Below are positions 382 through 9,053 of a stretch of DNA of 64,000 nucleotides, piece after piece. The notes below the pieces were generated by a model. The model was not told the origin of the DNA. It made no database searches and saw only the letters and a program-made list of their open reading frames with translations. Position 1 is the stretch's first letter; every line of letters starts with the position of its first letter. The translations under genes were made by a program, and so were the position numbers. The stretch is from the NCBI RefSeq assembly GCF_003334405.1, contig NZ_QOWM01000003.1. One strand, 5' to 3'. Source of the DNA: Escherichia coli. Its GTDB lineage: Bacteria > Pseudomonadota > Gammaproteobacteria > Enterobacterales > Enterobacteriaceae.

Positions 382-1638
382 ATGGGATCTGATGCGAAAA
401 ACTTGATGAGCGACGGGAACGTGCAAATTGTTAAGACCGGCGAGGTCATTGGCGCGACGCAACTTACTGAAGGCGAGTTGATTGTTGAAGCTGGCGGAAG
501 AGCCGAAAATACCGTGGTCACGGGGGCTGGCTGGTTGAAAGTGGCAACCGGTGGGATCGCCAAATGCACACAGTACGGTAACAATGGCACGCTATCGGTC
601 AGCGATGGTGCCATTGCCACAGATATTGTTCAGTCCGAGGGAGGCGCAATTAGTCTCTCTACGCTCGCTACGGTTAATGGCCGCCATCCCGAAGGTGAAT
701 TCAGCGTTGATAAAGGTTATGCCTGCGGTTTGTTGCTGGAAAATGGCGGTAACCTGCGTGTACTGGAAGGACATCGCGCGGAAAAAATCATTCTCGATCA
801 AGAGGGCGGCCTGTTGGTTAATGGGACAACCTCAGCGGTCGTGGTAGATGAAGGTGGTGAATTGTTGGTGTATCCAGGTGGGGAAGCCAGCAATTGTGAG
901 ATTAATCAGGGCGGCGTTTTTATGCTGGCCGGGAAAGCCAGTGATACGTTGCTTGCTGGTGGCACCATGAATAATCTCGGTGGTGAAGACTCTGACACTA
1001 TTGTTGAGAATGGATCCATTTATCGTCTGGGGACGGATGGCCTTCAGCTCTACAGTTCCGGTAAGACGCAAAACCTGTCCGTGAATGTGGGTGGTCGGGC
1101 TGAAGTGCATGCCGGTACGCTGGAAAACGCGGTAATACAAGGTGGGACAGTGATCCTGTTGTCACCCACCAGCGCGGACGAAAATTTTGTCGTAGAGGAA
1201 GATCGCGCACCGGTTGAACTGACCGGGAGTGTTGCATTACTGGACGGCGCTTCAATGATTATTGGTTATGGCGCAGAGCTGCAACAATCAACGATTACTG
1301 TACAGCAGGGCGGTGTGTTGATTCTAGACGGCAGTACGGTAAAAGGTGACGGTGTCACTTTCATTGTTGGTAACATCAATCTGAATGGTGGAAAACTGTG
1401 GCTGATCACTGATGCGGCAACGCATGTGCAACTGAAAGTGAAACGCCTGCGCGGAGAGGGAGCGATTTGCCTGCAAACCAGTGCAAAAGAAATTTCACCT
1501 GACTTCATCAATGTGAAAGGGGAAGTTACCGGGGATATACACGTTGAGATAACAGATGCCAGTCGGCAAACTCTGTGTAACGCTCTGAAATTACAGCCAG
1601 ACGAAGACGGGATTGGCGCAACGCTCCAGCCTGCGTAA
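382..1638 (+). CDS. ydhQ: Autotransporter-passenger-like (adhesin-related) protein, 418 aa; no obvious N-terminal signal peptide or C-terminal beta-barrel
   Basis: Full-length ORF with a Gly/Val/Thr-rich repetitive beta-helix-like sequence; position between tRNA-Val and mdtK matches K-12 ydhQ. Confidence 0.85.
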   Translation: MGSDAKNLMSDGNVQIVKTGEVIGATQLTEGELIVEAGGRAENTVVTGAGWLKVATGGIAKCTQYGNNGTLSVSDGAIATDIVQSEGGAISLSTLATVNGRHPEGEFSVDKGYACGLLLENGGNLRVLEGHRAEKIILDQEGGLLVNGTTSAVVVDEGGELLVYPGGEASNCEINQGGVFMLAGKASDTLLAGGTMNNLGGEDSDTIVENGSIYRLGTDGLQLYSSGKTQNLSVNVGGRAEVHAGTLENAVIQGGTVILLSPTSADENFVVEEDRAPVELTGSVALLDGASMIIGYGAELQQSTITVQQGGVLILDGSTVKGDGVTFIVGNINLNGGKLWLITDAATHVQLKVKRLRGEGAICLQTSAKEISPDFINVKGEVTGDIHVEITDASRQTLCNALKLQPDEDGIGATLQPA

Positions 1639-1645
1639 AAATACA

Positions 1646-1678
1646 GGCGCAACCCGTGAAGGTTGCGCCTTGTCTTTA

Positions 1679-1680
<2 letters not shown>
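1646..1680. terminator. Bidirectional rho-independent terminator between convergent ydhQ and mdtK
   Basis: Hairpin GGCGCAACC-CGTGAA-GGTTGCGCC followed by TTGTCTTTATT on the + strand; a T-run (revcomp of TAAAAATACAG) follows it on the - strand. Confidence 0.6.
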
Positions 1681-3073
<1,393 letters not shown>

Positions 3074-6710: not shown

Positions 6711-7643
6711 ATGTGGTCAGAATATTCACTCGAAGTTGTTGATGCGGTAGCGCGTAATGGTAGTTTTAGCGCTGCGGCACAGGAGCTGCATCGCGTTCCT
6801 TCTGCGGTCAGCTATACCGTGCGTCAGCTGGAAGAGTGGCTGGCGGTGCCGCTCTTTGAACGACGGCACCGTGATGTGGAGCTGACCGCTGCTGGAGCGT
6901 GGTTTCTCAAAGAAGGGCGCTCTGTTGTCAAAAAAATGCAGATCACCCGCCAGCAATGTCAGCAGATAGCGAACGGCTGGCGCGGTCAGTTAGCTATCGC
7001 AGTGGATAATATTGTCAGGCCAGAACGTACACGGCAGATGATCGTTGATTTTTATCGCCATTTTGATGATGTCGAACTTCTTGTCTTTCAGGAAGTGTTC
7101 AACGGTGTCTGGGATGCGCTTTCCGACGGGCGCGTGGAACTGGCGATTGGCGCAACACGCGCGATTCCGGTAGGCGGTCGTTATGCCTTCCGGGATATGG
7201 GGATGCTAAGCTGGAGTTGCGTTGTTGCCAGTCACCACCCGCTGGCGTTGATGGATGGCCCGTTCAGCGATGATACGTTGCGCAACTGGCCGTCGTTGGT
7301 GCGCGAAGACACCTCGCGAACGCTACCTAAACGTATTACCTGGTTGCTGGATAACCAAAAAAGAGTTGTCGTGCCTGACTGGGAATCATCGGCAACCTGT
7401 ATCTCGGCAGGATTATGCATAGGGATGGTGCCAACACATTTCGCCAAACCGTGGCTTAATGAGGGGAAGTGGGTAGCATTAGAACTGGAAAACCCCTTTC
7501 CGGATTCGGCATGTTGTCTGACATGGCAGCAAAATGATATGTCGCCTGCGTTAACCTGGTTGCTTGAGTATCTCGGCGATAGTGAGACGCTGAATAAGGA
7601 GTGGCTGCGGGAGCCGGAAGAGACTCCCGCAACGGGTGATTAA
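6711..7643 (+). CDS. ydhB: LysR-family transcriptional regulator (PunR/YdhB), 310 aa
   Basis: N-terminal helix-turn-helix ([36 protein letters not shown]) followed by a LysR substrate-binding domain; divergent from ydhC. Confidence 0.9.
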
Positions 7644-8665
7644 CGACGATAGTCGCGGAACGGGCCGTCAGCCACGGAGCGGCGTTCAATCAAGCGCGGA
7701 TGCACTTCAATAGACTGCGGTTCTTCACGTTTGTTGACGATACGATCCAACAGCATGTTGAACGCTGTTTCACCCAGCGAATCTTTTGGCTGATGGATCG
7801 TGGTCAGCGCCGGCGTAAAATAGCGCGCGTTGCGCACGTTATCATAACCGATCAGCGAAACATCCTGCGGGACGCGCAGGCCCATTTCATCAGCAGCACA
7901 AAGTGCGCCCATTGCCATGATATCGCCACCACAGAAGACGGCAGTAGGGCGATGCGGCTGCGACAGGATTTGCTGCATGGCGCGATAACCGGATTCAGGT
8001 TCAAAGTCACCCTGCACAATCCAGCTTTCCGGCACCTTGATCATCGCTTCTTCCATCGCCTTCATAAAACCGGCAAGGCGGCCTGCGCCGGTGTTACGTT
8101 CCAGCGGGCCGGGGATGACGCCGATTTCGCGGTGACCGCGTTCAATCAGATAACGCCCGGCCATGTAGCCGCCTTCGAACGCGTTATCAATGACCGCATC
8201 GGTGAAGTCAGCTTTTGCTTCACCCCAGTCCATGACCACCATTGGGATATGGCGATACTCTTCCAGCATCGCCAGCAACGGCTCTGGGTACTCAGAACAC
8301 ATCACCAGCAGACCATCGACGCGTTTTTGCGCCATCATCGACAGATAAGCCCGCTGTTTCTCAAGATTGTTCCACGCATTGCCCAGAATCAGGGTGTAAC
8401 CTTTCTGGAAGCAATTTTTTTCAACTGCTTCAATGATCTCGGCAAAATAGGCCGCTTCGCTGCTGGTCGCCAGCAAACCGATAGACTTGGTGTGGTTAAC
8501 CTTCAGGCTACGCGCCACCGCGCTAGGGGAGTAGTGTAATTCTTTAATCGCTGCCCACACGGCGTTGCGCGTTTCTTCAGCGACGAAACGTGTTTTGTTG
8601 ATCACGTGTGACACAGTTGTAGTGGAAACGTTTGCTCGTTTCGCTACATCTTTTATTGTTGCCAT
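7640..8665 (-). CDS. purR: Purine repressor PurR (LacI family), 341 aa
   Basis: [56 protein letters not shown]...; overlaps the ydhB stop by 4 nt in convergent orientation. Confidence 0.97.
8623..8638. promoter_or_regulatory. PUR-box-like operator inside the 5' end of the purR coding region (autoregulation site O2)
   Basis: TGGAAACGTTTGCTCG contains the GCAAACGTTT half-palindrome core of the PurR operator (revcomp CGAGCAAACGTTTCCA). Confidence 0.6.
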
Positions 8666-8709
8666 TCCATTTCACTCCAGACCCTAACTTCAGCTCCTGC
8701 AAAATCGCA

Positions 8710-8725
8710 AGGTAAACGTTTGCCT
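8710..8725. promoter_or_regulatory. PUR-box operator in the purR 5' leader (autoregulation site O1)
   Basis: AGGTAAACGTTTGCCT (revcomp AGGCAAACGTTTACCT) matches the PurR operator consensus aCGCAAACGTTTtCnT, about 45 bp upstream of the purR start. Confidence 0.7.
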
Positions 8726-8963
8726 TTACACACCTTACGCACAACAAAAGTGTTGCGGTACGCCGGAAAAACGACACGGAGCGTCAGGAAGGGGTCAATG
8801 GCCAGTACGCAAATAGTGTAAGCGTGGAATTTTGGCCGATCTTGACGAAAAGGGGAAGTGGTAAAAACACTTATCATTATAAATGACGGGAGATTTTTTC
8901 ATCACAGTGTGTAAAAATGCGTAATATCACTTTTTGTGTGGTAATAAAAAAGGAGAAAACTTG

Positions 8964-9053
8964 ATGAGCACCGACCTTAAATTTTCACTGGTAACAACGA
9001 TTATCGTCCTCGGTTTGATCGTAGCCGTGGGTTTGACTGCCGCGCTGCACTGA
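8964..9053 (+). CDS. ynhF: Small membrane protein YnhF, 29 aa
   Basis: ATG at 8964 preceded by the AGGAGA Shine-Dalgarno; translation MSTDLKFSLVTTIIVLGLIVAVGLTAALH is a single TM helix. Too short for the supplied ORF track. Confidence 0.8.
   Translation: MSTDLKFSLVTTIIVLGLIVAVGLTAALH

Follow-up and report, generated by a model that had tools for sequence, protein, structure and literature searches.

Paired PurR operators in the leader and first codons of Escherichia coli purR: position, motif strength and conservation across Enterobacteriaceae

Operators reported downstream of the promoter in purR and related genes

Autoregulation of purR through two operators, here termed O1 and O2, is already known from textbooks and RegulonDB since 1990. 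According to its title, the study by Rolfes & Zalkin 1990 (J Bacteriol 172:5758) describes purR autoregulation for which two sites are required 'downstream of the promoter'. Protection by purified PurR in vitro and a loss of regulation once the sites are mutated were reportedly also described in that study. RegulonDB annotates two PurR sites at purR (PMC3505978), and footprint and site-mutation evidence classes have been described for PurR sites (PMC3548332). In ChIP-chip experiments, a PurR peak at purR (1,735,528-1,736,095) was detected with adenine only and not without adenine (Cho et al. 2011, PMC3159470). The motif of this peak is AGGTAAACGTTTGCCT at MG1655 1,735,808-823, i.e. the 16-mer of O1, equally far from the ATG, and a FIMO scan at p<1e-4 gave only this site for the peak (PMC3159470); the peak spans O1 as well as O2, and its resolution cannot separate sites 88 bp apart. 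The site GAGCAAACGTTTCCAC, placed at MG1655 1737872-1737887 and +28 from the ATG by Qian et al. 2016 (PMC5110547), is the identical 16-mer to O2, and these authors note an overlap with PurR operators there, crediting Rolfes & Zalkin 1990.

The arrangement at purR has parallels in two other described systems. The purB operator (He & Zalkin 1992), which brings about roadblock repression, is a PurR site that is positioned beyond the promoter, within coding sequence, and acts on elongation, as is likely for the purR operators. In purB, however, only one site is present, deep within the ORF, while purR has two, in the leader and in codons 10-15, and purR, unlike purB, encodes the repressor itself. 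In lacI, a LacI-family repressor limits its own transcript via an operator downstream of the promoter (PMC3711431), as is likely in purR; by contrast, the lacO3 roadblock acts at the 3' end of lacI, where the transcript is truncated, while the purR operators are at the 5' end. PurR is among the listed roadblock proteins (PMC4132739, PMC10310618), and a reduced downstream transcript without effect on initiation has been stated for both purB and purR (PMC3159470); these roadblock references cite the purB study and not purR directly.

Here, we analysed these sites in a window of 64,000 nucleotides from E. coli (contig NZ_QOWM01000003.1). O1 (-60..-45 from the ATG) and O2 (+28..+43) share organism, gene, sequences and ATG offsets with E. 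coli purRo1 and purRo2, and we found no difference between them. Thus, the two sites are very probably purRo1 and purRo2, the PurR operators that mediate negative autoregulation of purR. The first-pass annotation of this DNA had likened the pair to the known two-operator autoregulation, and the ChIP-chip motif, the two RegulonDB sites and the conservation described below all support that match. Only two aspects are mildly new, namely how strongly synonymous sites in O2 are constrained across Enterobacteriaceae and the composition of O2 from PurR and GalR half-sites.

The purR locus and the strength of its two sites

The ORF at 7640..8665 on the minus strand is identified as PurR by an NCBIfam equivalog match (NF007979, 711 bits vs a cutoff of 501) and is also called purR in the RefSeq annotation; purR is the target of the regulation and at the same time encodes the repressor. 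The window corresponds to E. coli chromosomal DNA. Gene order at the locus is punC, punR, purR (minus strand), cydH, ydhP, sodB, and a 1.9-kb query around the purR operators was present in 5426 of 5426 complete genomes. The features on which the analysis draws are as follows.

7640..8665, minus strand: purR coding sequence of 341 aa (ORF list, NCBIfam NF007979, RefSeq annotation), with the ATG start codon at 8665..8663
8622..8637, minus strand: purR operator O2, the weaker site; GAGCAAACGTTTCCAC on the sense strand and GTGGAAACGTTTGCTC on the plus strand
8675..8678, minus strand: likely Shine-Dalgarno sequence GGAG, 10-13 nt upstream of the purR ATG
8710..8725, minus strand: purR operator O1 in the 5' leader; AGGCAAACGTTTACCT on the sense strand (8725..8710, 45-60 nt upstream of the ATG) and AGGTAAACGTTTGCCT on the plus strand
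8765..8802, minus strand: conserved leader/upstream block at -137..-100 from the ATG, with a hairpin and T5 at 8786..8772
8829..8857, minus strand: tentative promoter, the best conserved sigma-70-like candidate; -35 TTCCCC at 8857..8852, 17-nt spacer, -10 CAAAAT at 8834..8829

The assignment of GGAG as the likely Shine-Dalgarno sequence was read from the letters, and this GGAG falls within a block at -16..-5 that is conserved in an alignment of 80 species. O2 covers codons 10-15 (R-A-N-V-S-T), where the turn of the PurR helix-turn-helix is encoded.

The first-pass annotation had given two plus-strand 16-mers, AGGTAAACGTTTGCCT at 8710..8725 and TGGAAACGTTTGCTCG at 8623..8638, with one site in the leader and the other within the first codons. 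Both strings were found as quoted, and the placement relative to the ATG was confirmed. The PurR core GCAAACGTTT that it had recognised in both sites is likewise there, at 8714..8723 and 8626..8635 on the minus strand, which is the purR sense strand. The 16-mer that it had given for O2 needs a correction, as its register is one base off the centre of the palindrome and the centred site is 8622..8637. This register matters for matrix scans because O2 scores -20 bits in the register 8623..8638 and +10.4 bits in the centred one.

We took a PUR box to be an imperfect palindrome of 16 bp that has a CpG at its centre and matches ACGNAAACGTTTGCNT; both O1 and O2 fit this description. O1 has one mismatch among the 14 specified positions; O2 has three mismatches, all in the two outermost positions per side, and its inner 12 bp are perfect. 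A search of the window with the full consensus ACGCAAACGTTTGCGT and at most three mismatches found O1 only, and the count is not significant; the pattern is both too stringent to capture O2 and too permissive to be informative as a count.

The two sites differ widely in motif strength. A PurR position weight matrix (PWM) was built from 27 ChIP-chip motifs (Cho et al. 2011, Table 1, PMC3159470), with the purR entry left out, and about 128,000 positions of the window were scanned with the asymmetric and the symmetrised matrix. O1 scored 21.6 bits and ranked first among all positions, with the next unrelated site at 12.7 bits; with the symmetrised matrix, O1 scored 21.0 bits. O2 scored 10.4 bits with the asymmetric and 11.9 bits with the symmetrised matrix, about ninth and about sixth, respectively, among the distinct sites of the window and at the low end of the 9.8-24.1 bits spanned by the training sites. 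Five to eight unrelated intragenic sites in the 64 kb equal or beat the score of O2, and every such background match sits deep within a long ORF. Thus, the expectation in the first-pass annotation that both sites would score above background in a motif scan holds clearly for O1 and only marginally for O2. By the PurR PWM alone, O2 is within background and the motif score is insufficient to establish it; extrapolation from the rate in the window suggests some hundreds of equal or better matches genome-wide.

Two sequence facts nevertheless set O2 apart from this background. The 10-mer core GCAAACGTTT occurs twice in the 64 kb, both times here and on the same strand, compared with an expectation of 0.33, and two occurrences were reached in 3 of 100 shuffles. 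The palindromic inner 12-mer GNAAACGTTTNC is found only at O1 and O2 in the window, with an expectation of 0.08 and one of 100 shuffles reaching two occurrences.

Several further observations concern the surroundings of purR. The genes purR and punR (plus strand, 6711..7643) are convergent and their 3' ends share 4 bp (7640..7643). The gene punC, which encodes a purine nucleoside transporter, and its activator gene punR directly adjoin the gene for the purine repressor; the punC-punR intergenic region is without a PurR PWM match of at least 8.6 bits in the scan of the window. In one complete genome, that of E. coli HB101 (NZ_CP178859.1), an IS30 element of 1221 bp with a 2-bp target duplication (AC) is inserted in purR codon 7 at 1549..2769, equivalent to 8646/8647 in the window. 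It sits between the ATG and O2 and splits the promoter, O1 and the start codon from O2 and the remaining purR; the HB101 purR CDS in RefSeq is two codons shorter, while purR of the window studied here is intact.

Conservation of both operators across Enterobacteriaceae

For the analysis of conservation, one genome per species was sampled, which gave 80 purR loci, all from Enterobacteriaceae, with 80 distinct coding sequences and PurR proteins that are 92-100% identical; the alignment for the conservation profile spans -330..+66 around the purR ATG. O1 was found in every one of the 80 species, at -57 to -60; in the alignment, it stands out as a sharply bounded conserved island upstream of purR. 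No other 16-nt window across -330..-1 is as highly conserved as O1, whose mean identity is 0.975 compared with 0.57 and 0.61 on either side.

In 78 of the 80 species, the position of O2 is exactly +28, and the two exceptions are single synonymous changes, Ala11 GCC in locus L020 and Ser14 TCA in locus L056. The summed codon entropy of codons 11-14 (GCA AAC GTT TCC) is 0.19 bits, compared with a gene-wide mean of about 1.03 bits per codon and median entropies of 1.4-1.6 bits for the other Ala, Val and Ser codons of purR. Among the 173 four-codon windows in purR, these codons rank first for synonymous constraint, and none of 200,000 amino-acid-matched permutations was as low (p below 5e-6). These data therefore indicate selection on the DNA of O2 over and above what its codons require. 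O1 and O2 are both under DNA-level purifying selection across the 80 species, in which they are conserved as discrete elements independent of coding constraint.

These data bear on the possibility that only O1 is functional and that O2 is a fortuitous by-product of encoding the turn (A-N-V-S) of the helix-turn-helix. The low PWM score of O2, the unrelated intragenic sites that match it and a ChIP motif table that gives O1 only (PMC3159470) are what one would expect of such a by-product. However, a coding origin does not explain four codons that show no or almost no variation in 78 of 80 species, a pattern that none of the permutations reached, nor a codon set that is expected only about 0.45% of the time under genome-average codon usage. 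Two sites are also given by RegulonDB (PMC3505978) and by the title of Rolfes & Zalkin 1990, and we consider it exceedingly unlikely that O2 is fortuitous. Alternatively, the conservation could reflect an mRNA element, for instance a pairing between leader and coding RNA that affects translation, rather than DNA bound by a protein. The self-complementary AAACGUUU is common to O1 and O2 and could pair across the ribosome-binding site, and codons 2-24 of purR show generally lowered synonymous diversity. By contrast, folding of the leader RNA (-95 to +66) is no better than that of shuffled sequences (z = -0.12; 87 of 200 shuffles as good), O1 is unpaired with O2 in the MFE structure, and the boundaries of the conserved islands are exactly those of the 16-bp DNA palindromes. 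An RNA element is, therefore, barely credible, and on the z value of -0.12 we rejected RNA structure as the explanation for the conservation of O1 and O2.

Operators that are bound by PurR and conserved as DNA could still act together, with O1 and O2 cooperating by DNA looping between two PurR dimers instead of serving as independent roadblocks. Paired operators are common in the LacI family, and dimer-dimer interactions have been raised as possible for homologs with two annotated sites, among which purR is named (PMC3505978). However, the centre-to-centre spacing of 88 bp between O1 and O2, about 8.4 helical turns, is 88, 87, 86 or 85 bp among species, and helical phasing is thus not conserved. 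Moreover, PurR binding to the two operators is said to be non-cooperative. Looping is highly improbable as the mode of action, and its helically phased form was rejected on the varying spacing of 85-88 bp.

The wobble base of Arg10 is the one freely varying position of O2. It is C in about 45 species, where O2 becomes GCGCAAACGTTTCCAC, which is nearer the PurR consensus (12.9 vs 10.4 bits). This version is found in Enterobacter, Klebsiella, Raoultella, Kluyvera, Lelliottia and others (loci L018, L023, L025-L029 and about 40 further loci), while E. coli, Citrobacter and Kosakonia carry the version that scores 10.4 bits. Judged by these scores, O2 may be a stronger operator in the genera with the Arg10 wobble C.

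Synonymous diversity is also lowered in the adjacent codons 15-24 of purR (8594..8623, minus strand), with a mean of 0.53 bits vs 1.06-1.15 bits over the body of the gene. Among these codons, Ser19 (TCA) and Asn23 (AAC) never vary, and Thr16 (ACA) hardly does. This stretch may reflect an extended PurR or GalR footprint, an effect on translation at the 5' end, or something else. Outside the sampled family, V. cholerae and Pasteurellaceae are without the purR autoregulatory site, according to a review that cites Ravcheev 2002.

These findings have implications for the detection of weak operators. A functional weak operator such as O2 can sit at PWM background and escape a genome-wide FIMO threshold, and can be recovered via its closeness to a strong site combined with synonymous-site constraint. 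O2 also provides a clean example of a regulatory DNA element that overrides codon freedom inside a gene.

Probable mode of repression and the hybrid O2 site

A strict sigma-70 scan of 8560..9000 found no promoter, and a relaxed scan found weak candidates only, all at -150 or further upstream. The tentative promoter at 8829..8857 has 7 of 12 matches in the relaxed scan, with both hexamers at least 97% conserved. In the relaxed scan, no sigma-70-like candidate was found between -150 and -40 of the purR ATG and none overlapped or followed O1; this gap between -150 and -40 would place O1 and O2 downstream of any plausible promoter. The block at 8765..8802, which contains TTGACC, is the second most conserved upstream of purR (about 0.93 identity in 80 species), and the terminator scan flagged a weak hairpin followed by T5 at 8786..8772. 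This block could serve as a promoter element, form a structure in the leader or be bound by another factor, and may also lie outside the control region.

We suggest the following model for the action of O1 and O2. At high levels of hypoxanthine or guanine, PurR dimers with bound corepressor would occupy the two 16-bp imperfect palindromes, with O1 in the 5' leader as the strong site and O2 in codons 10-15 as the weak site. Since both operators are probably downstream of the promoter, bound PurR would most likely obstruct elongating RNA polymerase, i.e. act as a roadblock, rather than hinder its binding. As a consequence, the level of PurR would be under modest negative feedback. The affinity of PurR is reportedly about sixfold higher for O1, and purR autoregulation is said to be 2- to 3-fold. 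In this model, PurR occupancy in vivo and the block of elongation are taken from the literature.

GalR operators (GTGNAANCGNTTNCAC) are a further described system to which the locus shows a likeness. O2 is a composite, with a PurR-type proximal half GAGCAAAC and a GalR-type distal half GTGGAAAC that matches the GalR half-site; unlike in GalR operators, the remaining three half-sites, one in O2 and two in O1, are PurR-type (GCAAAC or GTAAAC after AG/GA). The sites, and O2 especially, might primarily be GalR operators that place purR under control of the galactose repressor rather than, or as much as, under its own. A GalR ChIP-chip and ChIP-qPCR signal has been published for ynhF/purR, and both sites were inferred to be GalR sites (PMC5110547). 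O2 is also the best match to the GalR PWM in the window, with 14.4 bits vs 10.9 bits for the next. However, O2 at 14.4 bits and O1 at 10.5 bits are both below every GalR training site (16.8-22.8 bits), and neither reaches the level of a bona fide GalR site. Moreover, Qian et al. (PMC5110547) report little or no GalR-dependent expression change for these genes, and O1 is a near-consensus PurR site at which PurR occupancy is adenine-dependent (PMC3159470). Thus, GalR is plausible as an added input to purR, but not as the main function of the sites or as a replacement for PurR, and primary control by GalR is very unlikely.

A related and rather doubtful conjecture is that O2 is a dual-specificity PurR/GalR operator within PurR's own helix-turn-helix codons, which would link galactose and purine signals at purR. 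If so, keeping the dual operator would have frozen four codons across Enterobacteriaceae and may also have fixed the unusual Asn12 of PurR. LacI-family members usually have Gly at this turn position. The frozen codons 11-14 are observed, while the input from GalR and the link to Asn12 are conjectural.

Operator-like pairs are not confined to purR in the window. A perfect 16-bp palindrome, GATAAAACGTTTTATC at 47181..47196, and a near-copy, GGTAAAACGTTTTATC at 47260..47275, are 79 bp apart and lie just upstream of the ORF 47306..48334 on the plus strand, which is MalI (NCBIfam NF007449, 669 bits). Besides PurR, MalI is a second regulator of the LacI family in the window whose own 5' end carries paired operator-like sites. 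We take this pair to be the MalI operators known from the intergenic region between malX and malI.
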